Of a stretch of 55,191 nt of DNA, positions 3,783-18,974 are shown one piece after another. The stretch covers positions 1-55,191 of the forward strand of contig CALMSM010000149.1 in the NCBI GenBank assembly GCA_937872425.1. The letters are read 5' to 3'. Each line of letters begins with the position of its first letter. Within the stretch, counting starts at the first letter, position 1. The notes under the pieces are model-generated. The model made no database searches, had not been told where the DNA came from, and saw nothing but the letters and a program-made list of their open reading frames with translations. Source of the stretch: an uncultured Candidatus Saccharibacteria bacterium. GTDB taxonomy: Bacteria > Patescibacteriota > Saccharimonadia > Saccharimonadales > CALMSM01. The position numbers were made by a program, and so were the translations under genes.

Positions 3783-3801
3783 CTTTGTGACTCCAATAAA
3801 A

Positions 3802-3911: not shown

Positions 3912-3940
3912 ATTATACTACATTTTTCTAAATTTCGCAA
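3912..3940 (-). promoter_or_regulatory. Leftward sigma70-type promoter TTGCGA-17-TATAAT
   Basis: Reverse complement of 3935-3940 is TTGCGA and of 3912-3917 is TATAAT, with a 17-nt spacer. It points at the endonuclease gene. Confidence 0.55.
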
Positions 3941-3962
3941 CCCAAATAGAACAAAAATTCAC

Positions 3963-3991
3963 TTGACATAATTCGCCATAGGTAGTATAAT
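3963..3991 (+). promoter_or_regulatory. Rightward consensus promoter TTGACA-17-TATAAT heading the sugar island
   Basis: TTGACA at 3963-3968, exact 17-nt spacer, TATAAT at 3986-3991. It is divergent from the 3912-3940 promoter. Confidence 0.7.
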
Positions 3992-4002
3992 TCCTACCAT
4001 GT

Positions 4003-4164
4003 ATGAATGAGCAAGTGACGATCAAAGTGTGGGCAGAGACCCGAAAAATGTTGCGGCTGATTCATGCCATGACCGGCGAGAGCATGGTCACGATATTGCA
4101 TAGGTTGGTTGAAGAAGAATGGAAGAAAGTAAAGCAGGGTTCTATAAAAACAAGCGAGTTGTAG
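4003..4164 (+). CDS. Small ribbon-helix-helix (CopG/Arc-like) protein, 53 aa, not in ORF track
   Basis: Translates as MNEQVTIKVWAETRKMLRLIHAMTGESMVTILHRLVEEEWKKVKQGSIKTSEL, which has a beta-strand/helix/helix pattern typical of RHH proteins. It is the first ORF after the consensus promoter. Confidence 0.5.
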   Translation: MNEQVTIKVWAETRKMLRLIHAMTGESMVTILHRLVEEEWKKVKQGSIKTSEL

Positions 4165-5078
4165 TGACGGGTGGCGCCGGCTTCTTGGGTTCGCATTTGG
4201 TGCAGATGCTAGAGGCGGCGGGGGCTTGTGTATATGTGCCACGTAGTACCGATTACGATCTACGGGATAGAGCGGACGCGCAATTTATGCTTAAGTCTGT
4301 AGGTGGTTTTAAGTGGGACATAGTATTCCATTTGGCCGCCCGTGTATCCGGCATTGCTTCCACCTCTGCAACACCGGCTGACCACATTTACGACAATGCA
4401 ATGATGGCGCTTAATGTGATTCACGCTTGCGCCAAGAATAATATCAAGCTTGTTGTGGCCGGTAGTGTCTGTGCTTATCCTCAACACACGCCCATGCCGA
4501 TGATCGAGGAAAACTTGTGGAATGGCGCGCCTGAACCGACCAACGCATCATACGGGGAAGCGAAACGCCTGGCATTAGCCACACTACAAGCCTACCACCA
4601 GCAACACAATTTGAAATGTGCTTATCTTCTCTCTGCCAACCTCTACGGGCCAAACGACCATTTTGACCCGCAAACTTCCCACGTTATCCCGGCACTTATC
4701 CGTAAAATTGACCATGCACAGGGGGGGGGCGATATGGGCATCTGCGTGTGGGGTAGCGGTAGCGCAAGCCGGGATTTTCTCTATGTGGAGGATGCCGCAA
4801 GAGCCTACATGCTGGCCGGTGAGTTGATTGATTGCCCCACGCCGATCAACATCGGTAGCGGCACCGAAACGCACATAGCATGGTTGGTTGAGGAATTAAA
4901 GAACATCATGGGCTTTCATGGCGATACTGTGTTTGATAGGAGCAAGCCCGATGGTCAACCCCGGCGTTGCTTGCGCATCTGGAAAGCGCAGGATATGTTG
5001 GGCTGGAATCCGACAACGCCGATAGGTGAGGGTTTACGTAAGACGGTGGAATGGTACAGGGAGAATGTAAATGAGTGA
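4119..5078 (+). CDS. GDP-L-fucose synthase-like SDR (GDP-4-keto-6-deoxymannose 3,5-epimerase/4-reductase family; Fcl/ColC-like)
   Basis: VVVTGGAGFLGSHL Rossmann motif, a YGEAK (YxxxK) motif, and SANLYGPNDHFDPQTSHVIPALIRK, which closely resembles the Fcl signature. Confidence 0.8.
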   Translation: MEESKAGFYKNKRVVVTGGAGFLGSHLVQMLEAAGACVYVPRSTDYDLRDRADAQFMLKSVGGFKWDIVFHLAARVSGIASTSATPADHIYDNAMMALNVIHACAKNNIKLVVAGSVCAYPQHTPMPMIEENLWNGAPEPTNASYGEAKRLALATLQAYHQQHNLKCAYLLSANLYGPNDHFDPQTSHVIPALIRKIDHAQGGGDMGICVWGSGSASRDFLYVEDAARAYMLAGELIDCPTPINIGSGTETHIAWLVEELKNIMGFHGDTVFDRSKPDGQPRRCLRIWKAQDMLGWNPTTPIGEGLRKTVEWYRENVNE

Positions 5079-5529
5079 CGAAAAACTTGCATCATTGCTT
5101 GATACGGTTGTTCATATAGCCGCCGTGCAAGGTTTTATGCTAAAAATAATTTGTATTTTGCAAGCCAGAATGATCGATCACGACACAAGCAAATTACAAG
5201 AGCCTGAATTGTCGGGTTATGCGGGGCTATCTCAGGCATTGAAAGGTTTAGCTTATGGTAGTTCAGAGCATAGAGCGGCTTTTACGCCATTCAAAGAAAT
5301 TATTAAGCATCACTACGAAAATAACGATCATCATCCTGAACATTTCGGTAACGGCATTGCTGATATGGACATTATACAGTTCGTAGAAATGCTATGCGAC
5401 TGGAAGGCGGCATCCACCAGAAACTCAGGTTCACTAGGTGACACTATAGACAAGAGTATTGAGAGATTCGGGATTGATACGCAGATGGCAGCGGTTATCA
5501 AAAATACTATTCGTAATCTTGGATGGTAG
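5071..5529 (+). CDS. Hypothetical protein with HD-like His/Asp motifs
   Basis: IDHDTSK and HHYENNDHHPEH motifs; ATG overlaps the upstream stop. Function is not assignable by eye. Confidence 0.4.
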   Translation: MSDEKLASLLDTVVHIAAVQGFMLKIICILQARMIDHDTSKLQEPELSGYAGLSQALKGLAYGSSEHRAAFTPFKEIIKHHYENNDHHPEHFGNGIADMDIIQFVEMLCDWKAASTRNSGSLGDTIDKSIERFGIDTQMAAVIKNTIRNLGW

Positions 5530-5544
5530 ACGGGGGGAATTGTA

Positions 5545-5739
5545 ATGGCTGAAAACGAGAGCATTCACGCATTGCTTATGATGTCAGAGTTGTTGAGACT
5601 TTTACATGGATTAAAAGGCGAAGATAGAAGCGAGAAAGCGAGACGGTATGCCGTGACCATCACGGAGATGGAGAAGGTTTTCGCTTATTTCAATACGTTC
5701 GTGGTTCGTGCCGACACCGATGAAGTGGGCGACAACTAA
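5545..5739 (+). CDS. Hypothetical protein (64 aa)
   Basis: ORF in operon context with a TAATG overlap to the next gene. Confidence 0.4.
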   Translation: MAENESIHALLMMSELLRLLHGLKGEDRSEKARRYAVTITEMEKVFAYFNTFVVRADTDEVGDN

Positions 5740-6458
5740 TGCGTATCTTCGTTCTAACCAGTGACGGTTATTCTCATTCTGTCTTGGGATTCTCCTATTT
5801 GTTCAATAAATATTGGGGCAATGACCAAGAGGTTATTGTTGCCGGTTACAATAAATTCCCGCCTGGACTACCGGCCAACTTCACCAAGCATCGCATAGGC
5901 CGCCAAGAAGATTACCCTGTCAATAAATGGTCAGACGGGCTTATCGGCTTACTGAAAGACTTCCCGCAGGACGAAGTGTTTCTTCTCTTCTTCGAGGATT
6001 ACTGGTTAACTGAACCTGTCCATCTTCGCGAAGTCAACATGCTGCACGATTACATGCTTCAATTCCGCTATGTGCTCAAAATGGACATGTACACCGACCG
6101 GCGCTATGCCGCTGGCGTGCAGAAGTACGGCGCGTGTGGGCATATTCCGCTGCTTAAAAGCGACTACAATAGTCAATATCACTTTTCGCTAATGGCGGGC
6201 ATCTGGAATCGTGAAATTATGATGCAGGTGTTAATCCCTGGTGAGAGTCCCTGGGATGTTGAGATGCGAGGTACAGAACGGCTAGCGCGTTGCGGGGATG
6301 ACGTGCTGGTGCTGGGCACTGATTCATGGGACGATAACCCGAAGACTTGCCCGATCCGTCACACACTAGCATATCGCAACGGCGACCCTAGCAAGTTGTT
6401 GCTTGGTGAAATTAAGCCCGAAGATGTGGATGCCATGAAGGAATCAGGGTATATATGA
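5739..6458 (+). CDS. Hypothetical protein, possible nucleotide-sugar transferase
   Basis: 239 aa, translationally coupled on both sides. An FFEDYW (DXD-like) motif is the only hint of function. Confidence 0.4.
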   Translation: MRIFVLTSDGYSHSVLGFSYLFNKYWGNDQEVIVAGYNKFPPGLPANFTKHRIGRQEDYPVNKWSDGLIGLLKDFPQDEVFLLFFEDYWLTEPVHLREVNMLHDYMLQFRYVLKMDMYTDRRYAAGVQKYGACGHIPLLKSDYNSQYHFSLMAGIWNREIMMQVLIPGESPWDVEMRGTERLARCGDDVLVLGTDSWDDNPKTCPIRHTLAYRNGDPSKLLLGEIKPEDVDAMKESGYI

Positions 6459-6790
6459 AGTTTTTAGTATGCGAAAGGCAAGAATCGCCGGGGTGCGATT
6501 ATACCATTGGGTGTGGCATGCGATACGGATTCATAGACGCCGAAAATATTGACGATGCAATTCAAAAGACTGTTTTCCCCGATGGCCCTGACGAGCTGCC
6601 TACCTTTTTATGGGATGGGGGTATGGCGGAGATTTTGATAGTTCAGATAGATGCATCCACATCCTATAGCTGGGTAGATATAGATTCATTAAAGGCCCAG
6701 CACGATGAGGCCGAATCAGAGGAAAAACGGAAAGCCACAGAAGTAAATGAACGGGCATTACTAGACAAGTTGCGGAAGAAATACGCGTGA
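6455..6790 (+). CDS. Hypothetical protein (111 aa)
   Basis: ATGA overlap upstream and GTGA overlap downstream. Confidence 0.4.
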   Translation: MKFLVCERQESPGCDYTIGCGMRYGFIDAENIDDAIQKTVFPDGPDELPTFLWDGGMAEILIVQIDASTSYSWVDIDSLKAQHDEAESEEKRKATEVNERALLDKLRKKYA

Positions 6791-7938
6791 AAGTTTCATT
6801 AGGCACCTGGCAAAATACGCCGCGAATCGAAGCCGCTGTGCTGTCTGTGCTGCATAGTGGCCGCTTGTCCTATGGGCCGGTATCGCAAGCCTATGAGCGG
6901 CGCTTTGCAAAAATGCACGATTGCGATTATGGCGTAGTCAGCAACAGCGGCACATCTTCTCTGGTAGTGGCATTGCAATCGCTTAAACATATGCATAGCT
7001 GGCAAGACGGCGATGAGGTGATTGTACCGGCGTTGACCTTCGTGGCATCGGTCAACGCCATTTTGCACAATCGACTTACACCTGTGCTGGTTGATGTGAA
7101 TCCCCATACATTTAATATTGAGCCAACATTAATCGAGGGTGGAATCACCGACCGCACGCGCTGTATTATGCCAGTACATCTGTTTGGTCAACCGGCGCAT
7201 ATTGCTAATATTTGCACGTTTGCGCTAAAGCATAATTTGTCAGTAGTGGAAGATAGTTGCGAAGCTGTTTTGGCAAAACAATTTGGTGCATCTGTTGGTT
7301 CATGGGGTGATGTTGGATGCTTTAGCACCTATGCCGCGCATCACCTGGTCACTGGCGTCGGTGGCATGGCAACCACGAACAATCCAGACCTAGCGAAACT
7401 TATGCGCAGCCTGGTCAATCACGGTATCGATTTGACTGAACTGCCCAACGGCGAAAATTATGACCCGTCATTTCTGGCTAGAAAGTTCAGGTTTACCAGT
7501 GTAGGCCATAGCTTCAGAATGACTGAATTAGAGGCGGCGATTGGTCTCGCTCAACTTGATGACCTACCGGCACACATTGAACATCGCCGCAAAAACGCTG
7601 AATATCTCATCACTGGCTTGACCGGCTTAGATGGTTGTCTTCAAACACAAGCGACTTTGTTTGGCGCTCACCACAGTTGGATGGTATTCCCCATTGTGCT
7701 GCGCTATGGCTCCAAGTGGCCGGTTATGAAACATCTGCAAGCGCATGACATCGAATGTCGTGAAATGGTGCCACTAACAAACCAGCCATGCTACAATTTC
7801 AACGAGGCTGATTACCCCGTGGCAAAGAACATCAACGAGCGGGGCTTCTACGTTGGGTGTCACCAGGGATTAACCACGGAGCATTTGGAACATATCATCA
7901 GTACACTACAGGACTATTTCAATGGCGCACACAAGTGA
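6787..7938 (+). CDS. DegT/DnrJ/EryC1-family PLP/PMP enzyme with His in place of the Schiff-base Lys (ColD/E1-type sugar 3-dehydratase-like)
   Basis: Family motifs are VSNSGTSSLVVAL, VPALTFVAS and VEDSCEA. The active-site segment FSTYAAHHLVTGVGG aligns to the usual FSFxxxKxxTTGEGG with H at the K position. It has a GTG start. Confidence 0.65.
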   Translation: MKVSLGTWQNTPRIEAAVLSVLHSGRLSYGPVSQAYERRFAKMHDCDYGVVSNSGTSSLVVALQSLKHMHSWQDGDEVIVPALTFVASVNAILHNRLTPVLVDVNPHTFNIEPTLIEGGITDRTRCIMPVHLFGQPAHIANICTFALKHNLSVVEDSCEAVLAKQFGASVGSWGDVGCFSTYAAHHLVTGVGGMATTNNPDLAKLMRSLVNHGIDLTELPNGENYDPSFLARKFRFTSVGHSFRMTELEAAIGLAQLDDLPAHIEHRRKNAEYLITGLTGLDGCLQTQATLFGAHHSWMVFPIVLRYGSKWPVMKHLQAHDIECREMVPLTNQPCYNFNEADYPVAKNINERGFYVGCHQGLTTEHLEHIISTLQDYFNGAHK

Positions 7939-8518
7939 ATCGTTACGGCAGGCTTTTGGTTATTTTTACCAAAACGAATTGTCCATGCTGAAGTCGTTAG
8001 TCTACCTATGCCCATCGTCACCTATCACTGTGGTCAATATCGGCGCGGGCGCTGGCACATCCGGCTTGGCTTTTTTAGAGACACGCCTCGACCTTCGCCT
8101 GCACACCGTGGATATTACCGACAAAAGCAGTCCGTTCGGATGCCTACACGCCGAACGAGAAGTATGTCAAGCGGCTGGCTTTACGCTCGGTGATAGATGG
8201 CATCAGCACCACATGGACAGTAAACAGCTCGCCCAGTGGTGGGATTATGGGCCGATAGACGTATGTTTTATCGATGGAGATCATACCTACGAGGGCGCAA
8301 GCGGCGATATTGTGGGCTGGTTGCCACACATGCGGACGGGTGGCTTTATGGCCGTGCATGATTATCGTAAGCAGGATGTACCGAGACCTGATGACGGTCA
8401 GGTTAGGCCGAGCAAAGAACTTTGTTCGGATGTAGATGTGGCCGTGGATGAATTTCTAAAATCACAGTTTGAAGTTTTTGCTTTGGTTGAATCGTTGATT
8501 GTGTTCCAGGTGAAATGA
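7922..8518 (+). CDS. Class I SAM-dependent methyltransferase
   Basis: VVNIGAGAGTSGLAF motif I and an FIDGDHTYEG motif typical of small O-methyltransferase-like enzymes. Confidence 0.75.
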   Translation: MAHTSESLRQAFGYFYQNELSMLKSLVYLCPSSPITVVNIGAGAGTSGLAFLETRLDLRLHTVDITDKSSPFGCLHAEREVCQAAGFTLGDRWHQHHMDSKQLAQWWDYGPIDVCFIDGDHTYEGASGDIVGWLPHMRTGGFMAVHDYRKQDVPRPDDGQVRPSKELCSDVDVAVDEFLKSQFEVFALVESLIVFQVK

Positions 8519-8692
8519 TGAAACAATCGATTGCAGAGTTTGCAGCTTCAATAAAGGATTTGCAAATTTCTATAGCAAAGAGCGTTCCCTTCACCTTGTT
8601 TTTTCGGATTGTAAGTTTTTTGGATTGGTTAAGCCGAACTATAGATGAAATTTCGATTACACTGGTCAAATGGTGGTATCAAGCAAAATGAT
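8435..8692. repeat. Direct repeat copy 1 (about 258 bp)
   Basis: Covers the 3' end of the methyltransferase gene plus a small ORF. It is near-identical to 9114-9373. Confidence 0.85.
8515..8691 (+). CDS. Small ORF (58 aa) inside repeat copy 1, not in ORF track
   Basis: MMKQSIAEFAASIKDLQISIAKSVPFTLFFRIVSFLDWLSRTIDEISITLVKWWYQAK. The reading frame is preserved in both repeat copies despite a 3-nt indel. Confidence 0.35.
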   Translation: MMKQSIAEFAASIKDLQISIAKSVPFTLFFRIVSFLDWLSRTIDEISITLVKWWYQAK

Positions 8693-9074
8693 GAGTAGAT
8701 TCAAACGACCTGAGCCTAGCGACGCATCGCCCCAGCAAGTGCTAGATGCCATCGGCGCTATCACTGATTGGGATTGGGAAACGGGATATTCATTCGCTCA
8801 TATAGTTTTGGATGACGTAAATTTGCTAGATAGGCATATTCTATACTGTCTTCATCCACAATGGATTAGCGACGTAATGATGGGGCGAATGGATGACAGC
8901 GTAAAGGAGCATAAGACGTTCGATGATTTAAATGATCATCAAATCAATATTTACCGTCACGCAATCGAACATATGGTGGAAATTGTTACCCTCCTCAATT
9001 GGCTGTTGAATGTGCCAGAGGACACAAGATCGATTGCTGAAGATTTGCATCACGGCACGGATGAGGAACAATGA
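8688..9074 (+). CDS. Hypothetical protein (ORF track start 8670; ATG 8688 overlaps upstream stop)
   Basis: Its N-terminal KRPEPSDASP resembles KRPEPPSDSYAP at the start of the 9572 gene. Confidence 0.45.
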   Translation: MMSRFKRPEPSDASPQQVLDAIGAITDWDWETGYSFAHIVLDDVNLLDRHILYCLHPQWISDVMMGRMDDSVKEHKTFDDLNDHQINIYRHAIEHMVEIVTLLNWLLNVPEDTRSIAEDLHHGTDEEQ

Positions 9075-9113
9075 ACCTAGCACAAGATTAGGCCGCACCC
9101 ACTGGAATGGCAC

Positions 9114-9373
9114 GATGTGGATAAGGCTGTGGATGAATTTCTTAAATCTCAATTCGAGGTATTTGCTTTGGTTGAATCGTTGATTGTGTTCCAGGTGAAA
9201 TGATGAAACAATCGATTGCAGAGTTTGCAGCTTCAATAAAGGATTTGCAAATTGCCCTAGCAAAGAGCGTTCCCACCTTGTTTTTTCGGATTGTAAGTTT
9301 TTTGGATTGGTTAAGCCGAACTATAGATGAAATTTCATCTACTCTAGTTGGATGGTGGTATCAGGTGAAATAA
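9114..9373. repeat. Direct repeat copy 2 (about 260 bp)
   Basis: Begins with a relic of the methyltransferase C-terminus (DKAVDEFLKSQFEVFALVESLIVFQVK) and then a second copy of the small ORF. Confidence 0.85.
9200..9373 (+). CDS. Small ORF (57 aa) inside repeat copy 2, not in ORF track
   Basis: Paralog of 8515-8691 with an in-frame 3-nt deletion. Confidence 0.35.
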   Translation: MMKQSIAEFAASIKDLQIALAKSVPTLFFRIVSFLDWLSRTIDEISSTLVGWWYQVK

Positions 9374-9606
9374 TGGTCTACTTGCACTATGTTCGACATG
9401 GGATAATCTACATGGATGCGTGTGACGATACAGCGGAAGCCGTCGAACAGGCGGCATATCTGGAAGGAGATGGCCTGGCATCTGTCGATTGTGTCAAGGA
9501 TAGTGATGGTAACATTATCCTTGGTAATGCGATGTTGTGGAAGGGCATAGCGGGTATTTGGAGGGAATGGGATGAATCTAGCACAAGAAATGGCAAAGCG
9601 CCCTGA
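9373..9606 (+). CDS. Hypothetical protein (ORF track start 9352)
   Basis: TAATG overlap with the small ORF. 77 aa when counted from ATG 9373. Confidence 0.4.
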   Translation: MVYLHYVRHGIIYMDACDDTAEAVEQAAYLEGDGLASVDCVKDSDGNIILGNAMLWKGIAGIWREWDESSTRNGKAP

Positions 9607-10324
9607 GCCACCTAGTGATAGCTATGCGCCAAACTGGGATTACTGGCGGCATAATCTATGGAGCCGAGCGCAGACCGATGCACCTGAGAATTTTTACAAA
9701 TGGCCGTGCGTGTATCACACAATGCTCGTGGAGCACTGGCGTAGTATTATCACGGAGACCGAGTATAGGTATGTTCTGCGATTCATAGATGTTGACAAAT
9801 GGGCTTTAATACTAACCGAAGATGGCCGCAATCAAATCCACCAACTATACCACCTCCTCCGCTGGCAAGAAGCCAGCGGCAAGCGCATCGCAGATATGCG
9901 GTCAATCTGCGAGTTCGGCGGCGGCTATGGCGCTATGGCGTTGGTGTGCCACCGGCTAGGTTTCAAAGGCGACTACTACATCTATGACCTACCTGAGTTT
10001 TGTTTGCTTCAGCAATGGTATTTAGAGCAAAACGGCATCAAGGTCAAGCACTCAAGTGAGATTGTGCCGCTTGACGTTGAACTGATGATTGCTTGCTATT
10101 CATTAAGTGAAACCGATTACGCTGAACGTGATGAGTTTTTAGACATGGTACATGCAAGCAATCATTTGTTTCTCTACAGCAATAAATTTGAGAAGTTTGA
10201 CAACATCGATTATTTTCAGCAACTTGATTTTGGTGGTCACTGGCAACATAGCCATATTGAGCATTTGCCGCCTGAGAGTTGGTATAGTTTTGGATGGGGT
10301 GATGAGGCGAAATATCATGACTAA
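9572..10324 (+). CDS. Putative SAM-dependent (sugar O-) methyltransferase
   Basis: ICEFGGGYGAMALV is an ExGxGxG-like SAM motif; the ORF lies within the sugar island. Confidence 0.5.
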   Translation: MNLAQEMAKRPEPPSDSYAPNWDYWRHNLWSRAQTDAPENFYKWPCVYHTMLVEHWRSIITETEYRYVLRFIDVDKWALILTEDGRNQIHQLYHLLRWQEASGKRIADMRSICEFGGGYGAMALVCHRLGFKGDYYIYDLPEFCLLQQWYLEQNGIKVKHSSEIVPLDVELMIACYSLSETDYAERDEFLDMVHASNHLFLYSNKFEKFDNIDYFQQLDFGGHWQHSHIEHLPPESWYSFGWGDEAKYHD

Positions 10325-10829
10325 ATTTGTATCTGCCGTGCTTAGTTCACTGGCGCTCGTGATGTTTATGTCTGCCAAAGCCGACTCAACAGTCATTCAA
10401 TGGGACGGTAGCTGTTACAGTAGTGAGGTTGCTACTACCGGCCTTGTCACAATCACGAAAACTTACAACGGCTGGTATTATGATGTGTTGATGACCGGTA
10501 ATTTATCTATAGATGGCACGCCGGATTGGATACGGGCACAAGAATTACCGCCCGGTTTTCTACCTGACACAGACGACCTAACAATGTACGCCTGTGACAT
10601 TGCCTACAACAGTAATGATGTTCGATATTGGCCTATAAGCGCTGCAATGGATGGCACCTACGGCAACGGCGCATTGTATTTTGATAATCACAACGGTGCC
10701 TATGAATTACTCTGCAAGTGGCGCACCACGCAACGCAATCCGTCAATCAGCGTGTGGAATAGCTGCGCCGGTATCAAGGTGCTGAACTATGTACCGTTTC
10801 GCTTGTATGTGCCAGTGATGAGCAACTAG
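10317..10829 (+). CDS. Secreted Cys-containing protein (signal peptide)
   Basis: Internal start MTKFVSAVLSSLALVMFMSAKA/DSTV gives a classic signal peptide. The upstream part of the listed ORF overlaps the previous gene. Confidence 0.55.
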   Translation: MTKFVSAVLSSLALVMFMSAKADSTVIQWDGSCYSSEVATTGLVTITKTYNGWYYDVLMTGNLSIDGTPDWIRAQELPPGFLPDTDDLTMYACDIAYNSNDVRYWPISAAMDGTYGNGALYFDNHNGAYELLCKWRTTQRNPSISVWNSCAGIKVLNYVPFRLYVPVMSN

Positions 10830-11681
10830 ATGCTAGTCAATCTATTTGACTTCAACTTTCGTCAATCCGTGTGTTCGGTGGCCTATCAGACACCCGAACA
10901 TATCCAGTACGTGCGAGACCTGACCACGTTTGATGGTGTGACCATCTTCACCGATGGCTATATCACCGATGGCAGCGTTGACCGTGTACGTAGTCGGTAC
11001 AAAATCGCATGGTTGCACGAGCCATACTGTTTGCATCCTGACACCTATCAGGCAGCATTACTCGACGCACACAAGTTTGACCTGGTGCTGACCTACTATC
11101 AGCCATACTTAGACCTGGGGCGTAATTTTCGCTTTTGTCCCTATGCCGGCACGTGGATAGACAAAAAGGACTGGGGTATCAAGCCGAAAACGAAATTATG
11201 TTCCATGCTCATCGGTAACAAAATGAGCACAGACGGGCATCGCATCCGGCATGACATCGCCAACATGATAGAGCGCGAAGGATACCCCGTGGACTTTTAT
11301 GGCAGCCGTGGCACACCGGTTGGGTATGGGCAAGATACCAAATACAAGGTGCTGGCCGATTACGCTTTTAGTATTTGCACGGAAACATGCTACGAAGAAA
11401 ACTTGTTTACCGAATGGCTACTAGATTGTTTTGCGCTGGGCACAATCCCGATTTACTGGGGGTGCCCAAATCTCAAACGGTTCTTTATCCATGCTGGTAT
11501 AGAACAGTTTGGTTTGGTAAAATCACTGGGATTGTCTTATTTGGATATTGTTTTAACGATGTTGTCGATGAGAAGTTATGAGAATTTTATTGAGTCGGCA
11601 CACAACAATCTAAACATAATGCAAAAATACGCCGTTACCGAGGACTGGCTATACCTGAACATGCTAAAGGAATTTGAATGA
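10830..11681 (+). CDS. Glycosyltransferase with GT10 (fucosyltransferase)-like C-terminal motif
   Basis: YAFSICTETCYEENLFTEWLLDCFALGTIPIYWG resembles the FxLxFENSxxxxYxTEK...IP(I/V)YWG region of alpha-1,3-fucosyltransferases. Confidence 0.45.
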   Translation: MLVNLFDFNFRQSVCSVAYQTPEHIQYVRDLTTFDGVTIFTDGYITDGSVDRVRSRYKIAWLHEPYCLHPDTYQAALLDAHKFDLVLTYYQPYLDLGRNFRFCPYAGTWIDKKDWGIKPKTKLCSMLIGNKMSTDGHRIRHDIANMIEREGYPVDFYGSRGTPVGYGQDTKYKVLADYAFSICTETCYEENLFTEWLLDCFALGTIPIYWGCPNLKRFFIHAGIEQFGLVKSLGLSYLDIVLTMLSMRSYENFIESAHNNLNIMQKYAVTEDWLYLNMLKEFE

Positions 11682-11785
11682 TTTGTGACATAACGGTAGA
11701 GCATATACTTGCGCTAATTCTTGGGCAGATAATCGGCATGACAGTAATATTTATGGCATGGCAGTGTGTAAAAAAATATTTATGA
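11678..11785 (+). CDS. Micro-ORF, 35-aa hydrophobic peptide, not in ORF track
   Basis: MICDITVEHILALILGQIIGMTVIFMAWQCVKKYL. It has ATGA overlaps at both ends, bridging two enzyme genes. Confidence 0.3.
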   Translation: MICDITVEHILALILGQIIGMTVIFMAWQCVKKYL

Positions 11786-12858
11786 TCAACGTCTTCCAGC
11801 CAAACGCCGGTCAAGCCGAGCTGTCCGCCATCGCTGAAACGTTTGAATCCAACTGGCTAGGCAAAGGTAAGCGAGTTGCAGAGTTTGAGGCAGCTTGGGC
11901 CAAACACATCGGCACCACACCGGATCACGTTGTCTCAACCACATCAGCTACGGAAGGATTGTTCCAAATCTGTGAGCTAATCGGGTTGCACCGTGGCGAC
12001 AAAGTGATCATGCCAACCGTCTCATTTATCGGCGCTGCTAATGCCGTGCTTGCTACCGGCGCAACGCCTGTATTCTGTGACGTAGACCGATACACGCTGA
12101 ATCCTAGATTGTCTGATATTCAAGCGGTCTACACCAAACACACTTTTGCGCTTATCCTACTACACTATGGCGGCTCTACTCAGGAGCTGGGCGAGATTCG
12201 ATGCTGGTGCAATGAGAATGACGTGGTAATGATAGAGGATGCCGCTTGCGCGCAGGCTACAGTTTACCGAGGTAAAGCGGCTGGCACCTGGGGCAAGTTT
12301 GGCGTGTGGTCGTTCGATGCCATGAAAGTGATTACGACTGGCGACGGCGGCATGATATACTGTGAGGATGCCAACGACGCGAAACGTCTACGCCAGCGCA
12401 TGTATATGGGAATGGAAGAATCAAGCGGACTGAGTTCGACCGGGGATAAGTGGTGGAAATTTTCAACAAACCACCCTGGGCGGCGTGCTATCATGAATGA
12501 TATGGCGGCTGGTATGGGACTGGCACAGTTACCGAAGTTGGCCGGATTTATCGATAGGCGTAAAAGTATATCATCTGTATACCAAACGGTAGAGGGTGTG
12601 TATTTTGATTGTGGCATATTGCCGTATTATTTCTTTTGGATTCAAACGCTGAACCGTGATGGCCTCGCCAAGCATCTAAAAGCCAACAACATCTATACCA
12701 CCTTTCGTTACTACCCACTACACTGGGCGCTAAAAACCGGCGATAGCTTGCCCAACGCAGAATGGGCGGCAAACAACACGCTATTGTTGCCGCTGCACCA
12801 AGCGCTTAGTGATGACGATGTGATGTTCGTGTGCGATAAGGTTAAGGAGTTTTTTTAG
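11758..12858 (+). CDS. DegT-family sugar aminotransferase (Lys-type; perosamine-synthase-like class)
   Basis: VSTTSATEGL, MPTVSFIGA and IEDAACA motifs, plus SFDAMKVITTGDGG with the catalytic Lys present. Alternative start at ATG 11782. Confidence 0.8.
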   Translation: MAVCKKIFMINVFQPNAGQAELSAIAETFESNWLGKGKRVAEFEAAWAKHIGTTPDHVVSTTSATEGLFQICELIGLHRGDKVIMPTVSFIGAANAVLATGATPVFCDVDRYTLNPRLSDIQAVYTKHTFALILLHYGGSTQELGEIRCWCNENDVVMIEDAACAQATVYRGKAAGTWGKFGVWSFDAMKVITTGDGGMIYCEDANDAKRLRQRMYMGMEESSGLSSTGDKWWKFSTNHPGRRAIMNDMAAGMGLAQLPKLAGFIDRRKSISSVYQTVEGVYFDCGILPYYFFWIQTLNRDGLAKHLKANNIYTTFRYYPLHWALKTGDSLPNAEWAANNTLLLPLHQALSDDDVMFVCDKVKEFF

Positions 12859-13800
12859 TTGAGAGTTAAAATGATACCCTCCGCTCTCAACCTGACATCA
12901 GGCGAAAGCGGCATCCACACGATATGTAGAAAATGGACAGAGCACGGTGCATCTGTCGGCATTGATTTTGTGGAGCCAAATGAGTCAACCTATGATTTGC
13001 TAGCCGTTCATGCGGGCATGAGCAAAGAGTACGCCACAGCCAACGCTCCGCTGGTCAGTCACCTTCATGGAATCTATTGGACGGCGGATTACGATGCTCA
13101 CTACTGGGAGTGGAAAGCCAACCGGGATGTAATCGACTCTATCCGTTATGCCACATCCGTTACCGTGCCAAGCGCCTGGGTGGCTGAACCATTACAACGC
13201 GATATGCACCTGAATCCTTACATCCTACCGCATGGCATCGACTGGCAAGAGTGGCAGCACAAAGAGCCGAACGAAGGATACGTGCTGTGGAATAAAAACA
13301 GATCGGGTGTTGATGTATGTAGTCCCATTGCTGTGGGCAAGCTAGCGCAACGCTTCCTGCAAGTGCCATTTATGACCACCTTTGCACCAGACAACGCCAC
13401 GCCAAATATTAAGGCAACTGGGTTGCTTCCTCATGCCGAAATGAGGGTGGCTGTGCAACGGTCAGCGGTCTATCTGGCATCGGTCAAAGAAACGTTCGGC
13501 ATCGGCATTCTTGAAGCGATGGCTAGTGGCGTGCCGGTCTTGGGCTTTGCACATGGCGGCATTATGGAGATGGTCGAGCATGGCGTGAACGGCTATCTCG
13601 CCAGACCTGGCGATTATGAGGATTTAGCCGAGGGCCTAAACTATTGCTTAAAGCACCGTGATACGCTGGGCGCTAACGGGGCTGAACTTGCCAAGCTGTT
13701 TACCTGGCAAAGCGTCATGCTGAAGCTACGTGGCATCTATGACGCCACGCTTAGAATGTTGGCGCATGGCAGGCCGTACGCGATAGATGAGGGATCATGA
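12859..13800 (+). CDS. GT4-family glycosyltransferase (GT-B)
   Basis: The ETFGIGILEAMASGVPVLG...VNGYL motif (E-x7-E). Start is TTG 12859 or ATG 12871. Confidence 0.8.
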   Translation: MRVKMIPSALNLTSGESGIHTICRKWTEHGASVGIDFVEPNESTYDLLAVHAGMSKEYATANAPLVSHLHGIYWTADYDAHYWEWKANRDVIDSIRYATSVTVPSAWVAEPLQRDMHLNPYILPHGIDWQEWQHKEPNEGYVLWNKNRSGVDVCSPIAVGKLAQRFLQVPFMTTFAPDNATPNIKATGLLPHAEMRVAVQRSAVYLASVKETFGIGILEAMASGVPVLGFAHGGIMEMVEHGVNGYLARPGDYEDLAEGLNYCLKHRDTLGANGAELAKLFTWQSVMLKLRGIYDATLRMLAHGRPYAIDEGS

Positions 13801-14219
13801 GATTAGTTGAAATTTCCGAAGAAACGATACGCGAGCAGATTAAAGAATTGCCAGAGCGGTGGCTTCGGTACGCCACAGTACATAAATCTGAGGTGAATCC
13901 AATCCGGGGTGGAATAGATTGGAGTTTAGGCGCATACAGCACTGATGCAAACGAGGGGGACTGGAAAACTTTCCGGTGGAACGGTCTGACATGCGAGGAA
14001 ATATATAAGGGATTAAAAAATCTGCCAGATAATGCTGGCGATTCAGATGTCATAAAAATTATGGGCGAATATAGGATCAACGAATGGGTTAGGCTGCCAT
14101 TGTGTTGGTCTTGTCAATTAAGAATGAAAAAATATGTCGAATTAGCGGAGGATTCGGATAATGGTTCAATTTGTTTTTGTGAATCCTGTATACGAAAAGC
14201 GTTGCAATTACTGAAATGA
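13797..14219 (+). CDS. Hypothetical protein with C-terminal Cys cluster
   Basis: CWSC...CFCESC motifs; ATGA overlaps on both sides. Confidence 0.45.
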   Translation: MRLVEISEETIREQIKELPERWLRYATVHKSEVNPIRGGIDWSLGAYSTDANEGDWKTFRWNGLTCEEIYKGLKNLPDNAGDSDVIKIMGEYRINEWVRLPLCWSCQLRMKKYVELAEDSDNGSICFCESCIRKALQLLK

Positions 14220-16240
14220 CAGACATTTTACTGCCATTGCCATTGGTCAGTGTCGTGATCCCTTGTTACAACAAATCTGCATCTATTGCTCGTACTATTA
14301 GTAGCGTCAAGAGGCAGTCTTTGTCCAATCTTGAATGCATCATTGTTGACGATGGCTCTACTGACAATTCAAAAGAAATCATTCTGGACGCAATTAAGAA
14401 TGATCGTCGATTTCATTATATCTACCAGGATAATCAGCGCGTGGCGGCGGCACGGAATAAGGGATTTAGGCAATCAACGGGTCTCTATCTATGCATGCTC
14501 GACGGAGATGACGCCATAGCTCCCCTGTTTTTAGAGTTATGCGTTAGAGCGCTAGAGAATGATCGTTCGATGGGTATTGCCTATAGTGGATTGCATTACA
14601 TTTTACCAGATGGAGCGCAGGGTTTAAGCGGATGGCCGGGGCGATTTGATTACAATGTAGTCCTGACAGGCGGCAACCCATTACCGACCTGCAATGTCGC
14701 GCGGCGTGATGTGTGGGAACGAACAGGCGGACAACGGAGCCGATATTGCGAAAGTGGCGCTGGCGAGGAAGATGCTGAGATGTGGTTGCGCGTTGGCGCA
14801 TTAGGGTTCAATGCCATCCAGATTGAACCGGCTGCAACATTGGTTGATATATATGCCGAACTGAAAAAGGTTTTAGGTAGGGAGCCGACCAGGGATGAAA
14901 TCATAGGCACGGGACGAATCAATGGTGAAAATTACGAAAAAGCCGTTAATTCTATGTTTGTTTACTCGTGGAAGTCTGGTCAGGTGAGCGGTAATCCACA
15001 GCACGTAAAATCTAAATATCAATCAGGTCATCCGTGGATGACGGACAAGCGCCACCCGTTCGCTTCGATGGCGCCTGCGACAGAGGGTCGTCAATCGCAC
15101 GCCGTCCGGCAATACGATGAGCCAGCGGTATCGGTGATTATCCCCTGTGGGTCTGACCACGTGCAATATTTGGTAGATGCGCTGGACAGCCTTGAGGCGC
15201 AACAGTATCGCAAATGGGAAGCGATTGTCGTCTTTGACACAGGTGAACGCAATTATGATGCGCTGTTGATGGCTTACCCATTTGTGCGGCCAGTCTATAC
15301 CAACAAAGTAGGCGCTGGCGCCGCACGCAACGCCGGGGCAAAGATTGCTCGCGCCAAGCTGCTATTGTTCCTCGATGCCGATGACTGGCTTAGACCTATC
15401 ACGCTGGAGAAGATGCTAATAGCCTGGAACAATAGTCAAGCGATTATTTACGGCGATTACTACGGCCATGCATTTATTGAGCCAAAAGAAGCCGAGCGCC
15501 TGAAGATGGGCGAGCGCCTTGTATCTTACAACGCCAAAACGCAAGCGGCGGTGATGATTCACAATGCCTCGAATTATGATTGTGAGGAGGCCATTCGACA
15601 ACCACGCTTGATTAAGCCGGATCAGTTCTACATCTGGAACCTGATTTGTTCGCTTGTGCCTAAAGTGTGGCATGATGAAATTGGTGGCTTTGATGAATCA
15701 ATGGCGTCTTGGGAAGACTGGGATTACTGGCTTAGAATGGCGCGGGCGGGCAAGTGCTTCGAGCGCATCACAGAGCCGTTGGTCAATTATCGTTTTTATA
15801 CTGGAAACAGGCGTGAAAGTGGTAGACAAATTGCGGAAAGTCTGCTACAATATATGCGAAGAAAATATGAGGAGATTCCAGCAATGGCGTGTAGCGGGTG
15901 CGGTGGCGGTCGGCCACAACAACAGAATCCAGTAGTTCAGGCGGCGGCATTAGCCATGCCCTTACAGGCCAGCGGCCAACCGGCGCAAAATGTGACAAGC
16001 GCTGACATTGTGTGGGTGAAAGTGGCCGGCAATCGAGTTGGCACACGCCCAACAGTGGGTATGGTAACACGTCAGCAATATGGCTATAAGGATTCTAATA
16101 GCCCAGCGTTCAAAATGTTTCTGGCCGATGTTCGAGCACAACCGACCATTTACATGATTGTGCCTGACCCATCATCGGCTAGAGTGGCAGAATTGACACC
16201 ACAGCAACAGCCGTTGGGTGAGCCAATTAGGATTGCATAG
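14216..16240 (+). CDS. Two-domain GT2-family glycosyltransferase
   Basis: Two GT-A modules. The first is VSVVIPCYNK...IIVDDGSTDNS...DGDD; the second is VSVIIPCGSD...LDADDW...WEDWDYWLR. Confidence 0.85.
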   Translation: MTDILLPLPLVSVVIPCYNKSASIARTISSVKRQSLSNLECIIVDDGSTDNSKEIILDAIKNDRRFHYIYQDNQRVAAARNKGFRQSTGLYLCMLDGDDAIAPLFLELCVRALENDRSMGIAYSGLHYILPDGAQGLSGWPGRFDYNVVLTGGNPLPTCNVARRDVWERTGGQRSRYCESGAGEEDAEMWLRVGALGFNAIQIEPAATLVDIYAELKKVLGREPTRDEIIGTGRINGENYEKAVNSMFVYSWKSGQVSGNPQHVKSKYQSGHPWMTDKRHPFASMAPATEGRQSHAVRQYDEPAVSVIIPCGSDHVQYLVDALDSLEAQQYRKWEAIVVFDTGERNYDALLMAYPFVRPVYTNKVGAGAARNAGAKIARAKLLLFLDADDWLRPITLEKMLIAWNNSQAIIYGDYYGHAFIEPKEAERLKMGERLVSYNAKTQAAVMIHNASNYDCEEAIRQPRLIKPDQFYIWNLICSLVPKVWHDEIGGFDESMASWEDWDYWLRMARAGKCFERITEPLVNYRFYTGNRRESGRQIAESLLQYMRRKYEEIPAMACSGCGGGRPQQQNPVVQAAALAMPLQASGQPAQNVTSADIVWVKVAGNRVGTRPTVGMVTRQQYGYKDSNSPAFKMFLADVRAQPTIYMIVPDPSSARVAELTPQQQPLGEPIRIA

Positions 16241-16441: not shown

Positions 16442-16489
16442 AACGATTCTAATCAGTACAATTAAATAGTACCCGCGTTCGTAGTTATG

Positions 16490-16526
16490 AGGCGCTATCT
16501 CAGAAATGGGATAGCGCCTTTTTTTA
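16490..16526 (+). terminator. Rho-independent terminator
   Basis: AGGCGCTATC (16490-16499) pairs with GATAGCGCCT (16510-16519) and is followed by a T7 run. Confidence 0.8.
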
Positions 16527-16535
16527 TTCAAAATT

Positions 16536-16838
16536 ATGGCTTATCTAATTTTAGCGCTGGCAACCTGGCGCATTACATCGCTACTCGTAAATGAATACGG
16601 GCCATTCAACCTATTAGAACGTATGCGCTACTGGTTAGGCGTGCGCTATGACGAAGATTTGAGGCGCATTGGTACGAACGTTGTAGCTGAAGCTTTTACG
16701 TGTGTGTGGTGCCTGTCGGTGTGGGTTGGACTGGTATTGTCTGTTGCGCTTTATGCCATGCCGGTTCTGTCGGTGTGGTTGCTTCTGCCTTTTGCGCTAT
16801 CGGCGGGCGCTATCGTTATTGATCGCCTGAAGGGGTAA
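16536..16838 (+). CDS. DUF1360-like small membrane protein
   Basis: ALATWRITSLLVNEYGPF...CVWCLSVWVG pattern with multiple TM segments. Confidence 0.5.
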   Translation: MAYLILALATWRITSLLVNEYGPFNLLERMRYWLGVRYDEDLRRIGTNVVAEAFTCVWCLSVWVGLVLSVALYAMPVLSVWLLLPFALSAGAIVIDRLKG

Positions 16839-16840
16839 AC

Positions 16841-17308
16841 ATGAATCAGGATGGTATTCGAGTTAAAGGTTTTTTCCGCCTTCATATTGAGGAGAACGGC
16901 GAGCTAGTTGGCGATTCCGGCTGGCGACAAAACCAGGTAACAAACGACGGGTTTAACAACTTTCTCTGCAAACTGCTAGGTGCTATTGCCGGTAGTAGTC
17001 AGATCACCCATGCGCTACTCGGTACAGGTGGCGCACCAGCGGCTAGCGATACAACGCTATCGGGTGAAGTGGTCAAGCGCCAAGCGATCACGGCGGCTAC
17101 ATCAAGCACAAGCAAAACCGTGCAATTTACGGCCACTTTCAGCAGTGCTAACAGCTTCGTAACAGCGACCGCCAACATCAGCAATATTGCGTTGGCGGCT
17201 ACGAGCACGCAAGGTGCTGCTACTATTTTCGCAGGAAATACTTATGCCAGTAGTTCGGTAGCGACAAATCAAAATGTCAACGTGACATACAGTATTACAT
17301 TTGCTTAA
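16841..17308 (+). CDS. Ser/Thr/Ala-rich 155-aa protein of unknown function
   Basis: The C-terminal 90 aa are dominated by S/T/A/N (AATSSTSKTVQFTATFSSANSFVTATANIS...). It lies between sugar-island genes. Confidence 0.45.
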   Translation: MNQDGIRVKGFFRLHIEENGELVGDSGWRQNQVTNDGFNNFLCKLLGAIAGSSQITHALLGTGGAPAASDTTLSGEVVKRQAITAATSSTSKTVQFTATFSSANSFVTATANISNIALAATSTQGAATIFAGNTYASSSVATNQNVNVTYSITFA

Positions 17309-17357
17309 ACAGTAAGTTTTATCATTTTTTATTTCCAAGTGAGGACGCGCAAGGAAA

Positions 17358-17984
17358 ATGAACATTAACAAATTGTTGGAAAAAAACAGCGGTATTCGAC
17401 TCGACATTGGGTGCGGCGGCAATAAGCAGCACGGCTTCGTGGGTATGGACGTGCGAGACTTGCCCGGCGTGGATATTGTGCATGATGTGACGATGTTTCC
17501 GTGGCCGCTGCCAGACGAATCAGTTTTGACAGCCATCGCTAGCCACCTGCTTGAGCATATCCCGCCATTTCAGGCCGACCCGAAATTGCTTGGATTAATT
17601 CGTCTCTTGATTGACAAAGGGCTAATTAGCCCCACAGAAGTTATGGAGTATGTGGGCATCTATAATACTGGCCCTATGTTCATTGCATTCATGGATGAAG
17701 CTTGGCGGGTGCTCAAAGTGGGCGGCGAGTTCGCCATAGCCGTACCACATGGTCGCAGCGATGGATTTTTGCAAGACCCGTCGCATTGCAACGCTATTAA
17801 TGAGGCGCGCTGGGCATATTTCGACCCGTTTGTTTTGGCTAATCCTGCCGATCCTAACACGCAGGGTCTATTGTGGAGTATCTACAAGCCTAAGCCGTGG
17901 CGCATCAAGCACCTTACGTGGTCTCCTGATGCCAACATTGAAGTTGTGTTGGTTAAGCGCAGTTTGGATGAGGTGGCATTATGA
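17358..17984 (+). CDS. Class I SAM-dependent methyltransferase
   Basis: LDIGCGGNKQHGFVGMD motif I and the SHLLEHIP motif. Confidence 0.75.
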   Translation: MNINKLLEKNSGIRLDIGCGGNKQHGFVGMDVRDLPGVDIVHDVTMFPWPLPDESVLTAIASHLLEHIPPFQADPKLLGLIRLLIDKGLISPTEVMEYVGIYNTGPMFIAFMDEAWRVLKVGGEFAIAVPHGRSDGFLQDPSHCNAINEARWAYFDPFVLANPADPNTQGLLWSIYKPKPWRIKHLTWSPDANIEVVLVKRSLDEVAL

Positions 17985-18766
17985 CCACTTCACCAGTCAG
18001 GGAATACCGCACGGTCATTCAAGACAGCGGTGATCCTGGCTACGTTAACCGGCTGCTCATTGGGACGGCTACAACCGGCTTAGTGCATATCAAATGGGTG
18101 CAGGCCAGGTACGGGCAAATCATTCCGACGAACTGGAGCATGGTCAACATGTTGCAGTTTATGAATAGCTACATGCCACTACGCTACCAGGTGGCCGACG
18201 CTCAAAATCTGATTGTCAAAGAGGCAATTGAGCATGATTTTGAATGGTTATTTCTGCTAGAGCATGATGTGATTTTGCCGCCTGATGGCTTCATTCGCAT
18301 CAACGAATACATCAGGGAGAAGCGGCACCCGATTGTTAGCGGGCTTTACTATACCCGTTCGATGCCAAGTGAACCACTGCTCTACCGTGGCCGTGGAACA
18401 TCTTTTGTAACAGACTGGAAATTAGGCGACAAAGTGTGGTGCGACGGTGTACCGACTGGCTGTTTGTTAATCCACATGGGTATCATTCGAGAGATGTGGA
18501 AAGACAGCGAAGAATATTCGCTGAATGGCATTAAAACCAGGCGAGTATTTAACACGCCCAACAACATTTGGATCGACCCACAGACTGGCACCTTCAACAC
18601 AATGAGCGGCACGAGTGATTTGGACTGGTGTACAAAAGTGATTCAAGGTGACTATTTTGCGAAGGCCGGTTGGAGCGAATACCAAAATATGAAGTGGCCG
18701 ATGCTGGTGGATACCAACATTTTTTGCAAGCACATCAATATGAATGGTCAGGAATTCCCGGTATGA
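17981..18766 (+). CDS. Putative GT-A-fold glycosyltransferase
   Basis: WLFLLEHDVILPPDGF (DXD-like) and CDGVPTGCLLIHM motifs; ATGA coupling on both sides. Confidence 0.4.
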   Translation: MTTSPVREYRTVIQDSGDPGYVNRLLIGTATTGLVHIKWVQARYGQIIPTNWSMVNMLQFMNSYMPLRYQVADAQNLIVKEAIEHDFEWLFLLEHDVILPPDGFIRINEYIREKRHPIVSGLYYTRSMPSEPLLYRGRGTSFVTDWKLGDKVWCDGVPTGCLLIHMGIIREMWKDSEEYSLNGIKTRRVFNTPNNIWIDPQTGTFNTMSGTSDLDWCTKVIQGDYFAKAGWSEYQNMKWPMLVDTNIFCKHINMNGQEFPV

Positions 18767-18972
18767 AAATTAGCGAATTGATTCCGCAATTGCAAACGGC
18801 GCTAGACATTCATGGCGACGTAGATGTAGTGACACATTTGAACGGCAAATATCGACCGCTGCGCACGGCGTTTTTTTGGTCAACCTTATTTGTGCTGACT
18901 GATCGCTCTATGAGTGACACAATCAATATCGAGGTGGCCGATACTATTTCGCTTGGTGAATCTGTAGGCTGA
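18763..18972 (+). CDS. Hypothetical protein (69 aa; internal start of listed ORF)
   Basis: ATG 18763 overlaps the stop of the previous gene. Confidence 0.4.
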   Translation: MKISELIPQLQTALDIHGDVDVVTHLNGKYRPLRTAFFWSTLFVLTDRSMSDTINIEVADTISLGESVG

Positions 18973-18974
18973 TC

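Follow-up and report, generated by a model that had tools for sequence, protein, structure and literature searches.

Genomic context and layout of the island

The window analysed here is the whole 55,191-nucleotide stretch of contig CALMSM010000149.1, and the element of interest is an island of 25 open reading frames (ORFs), all on the plus strand at 4003-18972 (Table 1). The island carries six glycosyltransferase (GT) domains, together with putative sugar-nucleotide enzymes and methyltransferases, between the gene for a capsid protein of predicted HK97 fold and the downstream structural genes. On the basis of profile and structure searches and of related loci in environmental virus sequences, we identify it as the long version of a glycosylation cassette that is linked to the capsid gene and is the defining trait of a large, uncultured lineage of tailed phages.

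The capsid protein (477 aa) had no match by sequence in Pfam, PHROGs or the PDB, and its fold therefore had to be obtained by structure prediction. An AlphaFold2 (AF2) model built on 45 homologues (pLDDT 74) was compared with the PDB using Foldseek, and the top 50 matches were all HK97-fold proteins, namely 49 capsids of phages or phage satellites and one encapsulin (best match 9cul, 7.7e-10). Judged by this modelled fold, the gene at 1345-2778 encodes the major capsid protein, a member of a family of 1429 unnamed proteins. Its C-terminal residues 461-477 are predicted to be disordered and include Ser/Thr, which is only suggestive for glycan attachment. The downstream anchor, a 427-aa protein, matched nothing in Pfam, PHROGs or (as a profile) the PDB.

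Genes upstream of the window start were revealed by a 67.9-kb ENA contig that is 99.8% identical to the window. The gene order in this contig is TerL (phrog_2, 1.6e-31), a 723-aa portal-size gene, a 58-aa gene, a 442-aa gene, the capsid gene, the island and the tape-measure gene; the portal-size protein had no PHROG match and the 442-aa protein matched neither Pfam nor PHROGs. The island thus sits within the head-to-tail morphogenesis region of a genuine tailed phage. A preliminary description, made from the letters of the window, had placed it inside the virion morphogenesis operon, between a capsid-size gene and a supposed neck/tail-side ORF (18975). The placement and the capsid assignment stand, but the operon is only presumptive, since the island has its own promoter and a minus-strand homing endonuclease gene that had gone unmentioned lies between it and the capsid gene; the neck or tail role of the 18975 ORF is likewise presumptive.

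Other parts of the preliminary description of the layout were borne out. The ORFs are co-oriented and mostly translationally coupled, as 19 of the 24 junctions between successive ORFs overlap, abut or leave a gap of at most 2 nt, many being of the ATGA, GTGA or TAATG type. The perfect promoter at the start of the island is unique in its region, and the strong terminator near 16490-16526 was recovered as a hairpin (16489-16520) whose 14-bp stem is the longest among the terminator-like sites. The ribbon-helix-helix (RHH) ORF that was said to follow the promoter did not fare as well, because the 53-aa ORF at 4003-4164 matched no profile, Pfam included.

The homing endonuclease gene, which is not part of the sugar function, runs towards the capsid gene, with a 4-nt overlap at the stop codon of the latter. 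Homologues were observed at the same spot in two related loci (L013 and L014; loci are numbered with the prefix L) and inside the island of a third (L005, extended by ~900 bp with an exact-pattern scan). A perfect 19-bp inverted repeat with a 14-nt loop (2829-2880), located ~50 nt past the capsid stop codon within the 3' end of the endonuclease gene, may be a terminator or an endonuclease-related site.

Table 1. Features of the island and of the adjoining phage genes (positions in the window).
Feature	Position	Strand	Basis or remark
Major capsid protein, HK97 fold by predicted structure; upstream anchor of the cassette	1345..2778	+	AF2 and Foldseek
LAGLIDADG/HTH (helix-turn-helix) homing endonuclease, between capsid gene and island	2775..3782	-	phrog_4645 4.5e-49; LAGLIDADG_3 3.2e-7
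Perfect sigma-70-type promoter, TTGACA-17-TATAAT	3963..3991	+	sole 12/12 match in 2700-19100
53-aa ORF, RHH-like sequence pattern	4003..4164	+	51%-identical ORF in L002
Fcl/ColC-type GDP-4-keto-6-deoxyhexose 3,5-epimerase/4-reductase	4119..5078	+	Epimerase 2.3e-52; 1bsv 1.3e-56
DUF5662 protein	5071..5529	+	PF18907 2.1e-30
GT-A-fold glycosyltransferase, unnamed family	5739..6458	+	AF2 pLDDT 93.7; Foldseek GnT-I 2.9e-6
Candidate ColD-like pyridoxamine phosphate (PMP)-dependent sugar 3-dehydratase, DegT fold	6787..7938	+	DegT 6.8e-87; His replaces catalytic Lys
Methyltransf_24 S-adenosylmethionine (SAM)-dependent methyltransferase	7922..8518	+	2.5e-16; homologues in 23/68 loci
Local duplication	8429..9375	+	direct repeats 8429-8693 and 9114-9375, ~265 bp, ~90% identical
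Putative sugar O-methyltransferase, weak call	9572..10324	+	TIGR04371 1.2e-5, 24.9 bits vs cutoff 44; homologues in 14/68 loci
170-aa protein, signal-peptide-like N-terminus	10317..10829	+	hydrophobic N-terminus MTKFVSAVLSSLALVMFMSAKA
GT10-type (alpha-1,3-fucosyltransferase-like) glycosyltransferase	10830..11681	+	family profile vs PDB
TlmJ-like sugar aminotransferase	11758..12858	+	DegT 1.4e-71; 5uid 2.8e-99; catalytic Lys present
GT4 glycosyltransferase	12859..13800	+	Glycos_transf_1 2.5e-17
140-aa Cys-rich ORF splitting the GT fusion in the window phage	13797..14219	+	two CxxC pairs; ATGA overlaps on both sides
Double GT2 with C-terminal CxxCG/YGY(K/R) module	14216..16240	+	Glycos_transf_2 5e-54, 2 stretches
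Intrinsic terminator-like hairpin and T-run	16489..16526	+	hairpin 16489-16520
DUF1360 membrane protein	16536..16838	+	Pfam, transmembrane-like segment
Recurrent three-gene module	16841..18766	+	Ser/Thr/Ala-rich 155-aa protein (phrog_5417), methyltransferase-like 17358-17984, GT2-like 17981-18766
GT2-like GT-A protein, divergent	17981..18766	+	family Pfam scan
Conserved 427-aa protein, downstream anchor of the cassette	18975..20258	+	homologue 3' of cassette in 54/68 loci
Tape-measure protein	23474-28378		PhageMin_Tail 1.7e-38

Glycosyltransferases

The double GT2, the GT4, the transferase with a fucosyltransferase motif and the one or two GT-A-like proteins listed in the preliminary description were all supported by profiles or structure. 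The protein at 5739-6458 had no Pfam match, and its model aligned with GnT-I/POMGnT1 in Foldseek (~3e-6, TM-score about 0.5). In a 56-sequence alignment of its family E86 is nearly invariant and D87 invariant. The family was present in 14 of 15 and in 38 of 68 loci, usually as one of the two genes that follow the capsid gene. The GT10-type protein scored 23.1 bits against the Pfam GT10 model, 0.8 below the cutoff of 23.9, and with its family profile all five significant PDB matches were fucosyltransferases (5zoi 5.5e-14, 2nzw 9.6e-14).

The family of the divergent GT2-like protein at 17981-18766 has 691 representatives, and 7 of the 42 members scanned matched Glycos_transf_2. Homology of the two GT-A-like families of the island to each other was rejected (hhalign probability 0.8%). 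Among the same 42 scanned members (family P0241-P0390), four are fused to Methyltransf_11 and seven or eight contain inteins (Intein_splicing, Hint and LAGLIDADG domains).

In relatives the GT4 is the N-terminal domain of a ~1000-aa GT4+GT2+GT2 fusion protein, which in the window phage is split by the 140-aa Cys-rich ORF at 13797-14219. No homologue of this ORF was found in any of the related loci, and the split is also called in a second assembly (L027). The C-terminal module of the fusion (window 15860-16237) is homologous to a stand-alone 177-aa ORF (hhalign 97.7%, E 2.2e-12) of L021, a relative without the island, where this ORF (11377-11910) lies directly 3' of the capsid gene and carries no GT domains; this homology indicates that GT domains were fused onto a capsid-adjacent gene. 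The module consists of a CxxCG motif and a YGYRxxGexF domain, to which 8 of the 12 relatives aligned add a DNA-binding-type double helix-hairpin-helix ((HhH)2) domain (RAD51-N 1.8e-7; also RNAP alpha-CTD and Dpo4); this last part is missing from the GT protein of the window. A profile search with the module returned one protein from a large protein database, and against the PDB the HhH part alone matched. None of the glycosyltransferases or sugar enzymes of the island has a predicted transmembrane-like segment.

Sugar-nucleotide enzymes and methyltransferases

The sugar-activation, glycosyltransfer and methylation content that had been read from motifs proved real in profile and structure searches, including the Fcl/ColC-like epimerase-reductase and both DegT-family enzymes. 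The protein at 4119-5078 was aligned to 1bsv (E. coli GDP-fucose synthetase), and S107, C109, Y136, K140 and H179 were all matched; we take the catalytic roles of these five residues from what is known of GMER. Its score against the NCBIfam Fcl model (259.7 bits) is under the equivalog cutoff of 500, so that Fcl and ColC are indistinguishable for this protein.

In the first DegT-family protein (6787-7938) the motif FSTYAAHH aligns with FSFFGNK of the perosamine synthase PerA and with SFYPAHH of the E1 dehydrase (E1 H220), and the His at the position of the Schiff-base Lys is kept in five orthologues. This replacement, combined with the lack of an E1-type Cys-rich insertion, is the signature of ColD-type 3-dehydratases. 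Over the full comparison the protein matched perosamine synthase (1.8e-50) and E1 (1.5e-47) more closely than ColD (~1e-35). An assignment as an E1-type Fe-S dehydratase was ruled out since the Cys-rich insertion is absent. The second DegT-family protein (11758-12858) is very close to TlmJ, the tallysomycin sugar aminotransferase. As regards the three class I SAM methyltransferases of the preliminary description, the one at 7922-8518 is firm, but those at 9572-10324 and 17358-17984 (phrog_6636, 3.4e-8) are marginal matches.

No GDP-mannose 4,6-dehydratase (GMD) or mannose-1-phosphate guanylyltransferase (ManC) was found by Pfam in the ORFs scanned, that is, in the island, its flanks, the larger tail and replication ORFs and the ORFs at 33-55 kb; the 4119-5078 protein was the sole match of the short-chain dehydrogenase/reductase or nucleotidyltransferase type among them. 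Because the dehydratase is not encoded, the host presumably supplies GDP-4-keto-6-deoxy-D-mannose.

Integrity of the assembly

Equipped with a consensus promoter and a strong terminator of its own and flanked by a mobile homing endonuclease gene, the island could be host DNA joined to the phage by misassembly, or a very recent insertion derived from the host. We consider this extremely improbable. The junction between phage and island is reproduced in L028 (100% identical over 9-8553) and in L027 (99.8% identical, from a point upstream of the capsid gene as far as 17143), and two Logan contigs (L029 and L030) show 100% identity wherever they cover the island. The GC content of the island (0.48) is close to that of the remaining window (0.495), and its tetranucleotide correlation with other phage segments (0.85-0.88) is the same as among those segments. 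The position of the cassette is moreover conserved in 50 divergent loci (see below). A chimera or host DNA, either of which the preliminary description had named as a refutation, was accordingly rejected by the independent contigs and by composition.

Distribution and variability in related phages

Loci in IMG/VR with capsid relatives (38-66% identity) have homologues of island genes in the corresponding position. The alignment of the 427-aa protein was too variable for scanning IMG/VR, and the GT4+GT2+GT2 fusion was used as the query. The scan gave 184 stretches, of which 77 loci were kept and 68 were non-duplicate. A capsid homologue was located within 10 kb upstream of the fusion in 54 of these 68 loci and a homologue of the 427-aa protein downstream of it, likewise in 54. 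In 50 IMG/VR loci the fusion was flanked by both anchors, at capsid identities to the window down to ~30%, and the synteny proposed as a check in the preliminary description was in this way recovered.

The distance between the two anchors in these 50 loci ranged from 2.7 kb, where the fusion stands alone, to 16.7 kb in L046 (median near 7 kb), compared with 16.2 kb in the window. The minimal cassette is therefore the soluble ~1000-aa GT4+GT2+GT2 protein, encoded directly after the capsid gene and before the 427-aa gene. L046 has the long gene order of the window at 35-52% protein identity (capsid 48% identical), and a His-type DegT protein was present in 27 of the 68 loci. At the other extreme L021 has no cassette, and its capsid gene is followed by the 177-aa ORF, a DUF1360-like ORF and the homologue of the 427-aa protein.

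The tailoring genes between the capsid gene and the GT fusion differ among relatives. This slot contained sulfotransferases, FkbM and class I methyltransferases, Polysacc_synt_2, GFO/IDH/MocA and hexapeptide transferases, as well as a RIO1-like kinase, HNH endonucleases, DNA methylases and TnpB. Such variable accessory content fits diversifying pressure on an exposed glycan. In L033 two sulfotransferase genes occupy the variable slot (11970-14085), which suggests that this phage has sulfated glycans. The three-gene module at the end of the island was found in the same order in L042 (6921-8747) and, moved to a place upstream of the head genes, in L091 (57-2079).

Comparison with known systems

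To our knowledge, the only phages whose own enzymes have been shown to glycosylate the virion are a few mycobacteriophages, and their cassettes are small. In this group phage GTs glycosylate capsid and tail-tube proteins (Freeman 2023, cited through PMC11600133 and PMC12363180). The cassettes of Corndog (gp35-38), Che8 (gp108-110) and Myrna resemble the island in combining phage GTs with a methyltransferase of the Methyltransf_24/TylF type, and that of Corndog also lies in the head region, where a TylF/Methyltransf_24 methyltransferase gene and three GT genes are found in 2.75 kb between the portal gene (gp34) and the protease gene (gp39). The Corndog cassette has these four genes and no nucleotide-sugar enzymes, whereas the island has ~25 ORFs over 15 kb, including a putative dehydratase, an epimerase-reductase and an aminotransferase; the former precedes the capsid gene and the latter follows it, and for the island glycosylation is a prediction. 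Homology was examined for two pairs (7922-8518 protein and gp35, BLASTP E 1.3; GT-A family and gp36, hhalign 0.2%; gp37, gp38 and the Che8 proteins were not compared). Homology to gp35 and gp36 was rejected, and the island is analogous to the Corndog cassette.

In the chlorovirus PBCV-1 the multi-domain GT/methyltransferase A064R and a virus-encoded GMD and GDP-fucose synthase build the virus's own capsid glycan. The likeness to the island would lie in virus-encoded cytoplasmic multi-domain GTs, methylation and GDP-6-deoxyhexose enzymes, which in PBCV-1 serve the capsid glycan. PBCV-1 differs in being a eukaryotic giant virus with another capsid fold and dispersed genes, and the window phage has no GMD.

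The GDP-L-colitose pathway (ColD and ColC) of the O-antigens of E. coli O55 and Yersinia pseudotuberculosis is resembled in that the island has a His-type DegT protein without the Fe-S insertion near an Fcl-like enzyme, and in that its GT10 enzyme would use a GDP-L-sugar donor. The island differs from this pathway by having neither GMD nor ManC, and its His-type DegT protein is nearer to PerA and E1 than to ColD.

The large sugar gene set has a counterpart in the cyanomyovirus P-SSM2, a phage without demonstrated lysogeny that carries 24 lipopolysaccharide (LPS) genes (PMC1079782). P-SSM2 differs in being a T4-like myovirus with its LPS genes in two major clusters. Considering these 24 genes, the range of 2.7-16.7 kb in related loci and the same long order in L046, the claim of exceptional size in the preliminary description, which had called the island far larger than the mycobacteriophage cassettes and the 3-4-gene seroconversion modules of temperate phages, is overstated.

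Putative target of the glycosyltransferases

The best reading of the cassette, which we hold with middling confidence, is the cytoplasmic glycosylation of virion proteins, these being the predicted target. The phage would take GDP-4-keto-6-deoxy-D-mannose from the host and convert it to a fucose- or colitose-like 6-deoxy- or 3,6-dideoxy-L-hexose and to a 4-amino-4,6-dideoxyhexose, some sugar positions would be methylated, and the six cytoplasmic GT domains would assemble a hetero-oligosaccharide on proteins of the virion while it forms. Either the capsid protein or a small Ser/Thr-rich product of the island would be the most probable acceptor; the Ser/Thr/Ala-rich 155-aa protein of the three-gene module may be a dedicated glycosylation substrate. 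The outcome would be a glycan coat that varies from lineage to lineage. No priming transferase, flippase, polymerase or transporter was found by Pfam and a transmembrane scan in the island, its flanks and the other scanned ORFs.

Several points weigh against a virion target. Glycans on virion proteins are a prediction, and the sugar identities are read from active-site signatures. The island has its own promoter and is parted from the capsid gene by a gene on the opposite strand, which makes late co-expression with the structural genes uncertain. The GTs of O-antigen synthesis also lack transmembrane segments, so that solubility is compatible with a lipid-linked acceptor. The GT fusion of relatives ends in a DNA-binding-type (HhH)2 domain in 8 of the 12 that were aligned, and the genome also encodes a TET-associated glycosyltransferase (TAGT) and a C5 DNA methylase. 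Finally, a cultured relative was not found in the searches of GenBank phages, in which tblastn of the capsid, GT-A (5739-6458), 16841 and 17981 proteins returned nothing.

The enzymes could alternatively act on the host envelope, altering an O-antigen, a capsule or another lipid-linked glycan during infection by way of the host's priming and export machinery, which would block superinfection or stop progeny from sticking to debris. The gene content resembles that of an O-antigen cluster (nucleoside diphosphate-sugar tailoring, GT2, GT4, GT10 and methyltransferases), and O-antigen GTs are peripheral proteins without transmembrane segments. The 24 LPS genes of P-SSM2 were interpreted as host-directed (PMC1079782). 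The block also includes a protein with a signal-peptide-like N-terminus (10317-10829, no family match) and the DUF1360 membrane protein, both of which had been noted in the preliminary description and were found again; transmembrane-like segments occur in the island only in these two and in the DUF5662 protein. A DUF1360-like ORF still adjoins the 427-aa gene in the island-less L021, and the DUF1360 protein therefore probably belongs to a structural or other module and is not tied to the sugar genes.

An O-antigen or capsule cluster would be recognized by an initiating phosphoglycosyl transferase together with Wzx/Wzy or an ABC transporter, and none of these families was matched by Pfam in the scanned ORFs; a ligase or a GtrABC-type membrane protein was likewise lacking by Pfam and the transmembrane scan. 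The families of a seroconversion module (gtrABC/Oac, with GtrA, GtrB, membrane GtrC and a lysogeny module) gave no match either, and no integrase turned up in either the window or the preceding 10 kb (~2.7 kb of the genome are outside this view). Furthermore, a host-directed module would not be expected to keep strictly to the capsid gene, as the cassette does in 50 loci. We therefore regard envelope remodelling as quite unlikely.

A third candidate target, missed in the preliminary description, which had named virion proteins and the host envelope, is phage DNA, with the sugars and GTs of the cassette extending a sugar on hydroxymethylated bases shortly before packaging and thus protecting the DNA from host nucleases. 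A TAGT gene (PF20691), split into ORFs of 73 and 192 aa, is located upstream of TerS/TerL in the 99.8%-identical contig (L031 4898-5779, ~4.2-5.1 kb upstream of the window start), and a C5 cytosine methylase is encoded at 47319-48227. The same genome therefore holds two elements of the known clusters for DNA sugar hypermodification (C5-MT/5mYOX/GT; TAGT), which include accessory GTs and epimerases. Phage GTs related to LPS enzymes put mono- to trisaccharides on 5-hydroxymethylcytosine, and some of the clusters adjoin structural genes (bioRxiv 10.1101/2023.12.21.572611), while RB69 and DLP3 carry sugar-nucleotide genes for DNA arabinosylation (PMC13326640). The (HhH)2 tail of the GT fusion in relatives, with its similarity to RAD51-N, RNAP alpha-CTD and Dpo4, points in the same direction.

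The arrangement of the genes argues otherwise. The C5 methylase lies ~28 kb from the island and the TAGT gene ~4 kb upstream of the window start, whereas the cassette is anchored to the capsid gene and linked neither to TAGT nor to the methylase or a base hydroxylase. A TAGT homologue was present in none of 105 related loci, although the portal was visible in 61 of them, and no TET_JBP match was obtained in the window ORFs at 33-55 kb or in the 10 kb upstream. The GT protein of the window itself has no HhH tail, and in L021 the HhH protein stands alone without GT domains. DNA as the target is accordingly considered unlikely. As a separate observation, an SNF2 helicase fused to an N6/N4 DNA methylase is encoded on the minus strand at 40997-43555, and the phage may also modify its own DNA.

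Returning to the glycosylation of virion proteins, a more specific but somewhat doubtful proposal is that the triple GT is targeted to the assembling capsid by its C-terminal CxxCG/YGYR module, formerly a stand-alone, capsid-adjacent (decoration-like) protein, with swappable tailoring genes giving each phage its own capsid-glycan 'serotype'. If this were true, an O-antigen-like hypervariable locus would act on the virus particle and be widespread in uncultured environmental phages outside the actinophages.

The cassette is not homologous to Corndog in the pairs tested and is fixed beside the capsid gene in a large uncultured lineage (1429 capsid-family proteins, 184 IMG/VR stretches), in which the tailoring chemistry (methyl, sulfo, amino, acetyl, deoxy) varies from phage to phage. 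If the virion is the target, glycan coats of phage particles would be commoner and chemically more diverse than thought, with a bearing on the evasion of adsorption traps, grazers and immune recognition, and would provide parts for capsid glyco-engineering. If DNA is the target, deoxy-amino sugars would be added to the DNA glycans known so far. Whichever the target, an unnamed GT-A family and a conserved GT4+GT2+GT2 fusion with a capsid-adjacent C-terminal module are hereby defined, as is a candidate phage-borne deoxysugar route of the ColD/ColC type.

Further observations

GenBank phages were also searched by megablast with positions 1-25000 of the window, which returned nothing, and with the double GT2 protein (14216-16240), which gave partial domain matches only. 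In a scan of a genome collection a single 3.9-kb contig matched; it is binned in a metagenome-assembled genome of Candidatus Uhrbacteria and is too short to name the host.

The direct repeats at 8429-9375 bracket a 134-aa ORF (8670-9074), and each copy comprises the 3' end of the methyltransferase gene and a small ORF of 57-58 aa. The 99.8%-identical L027 has one copy, without 8682-9113, and the duplication is therefore a strain-level insertion or deletion.

A 493-aa protein with BNR/Asp-box repeats (21116-22597) is encoded two genes upstream of the tape-measure gene. It is conserved in L032, L033 and 49 of the 68 loci and may be a beta-propeller protein that forms the tail tube or is associated with the tail. 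The window also contains genes for tRNA-Met (CAT, 49508-49579) and tRNA-Ala (TGC, 50457-50530).

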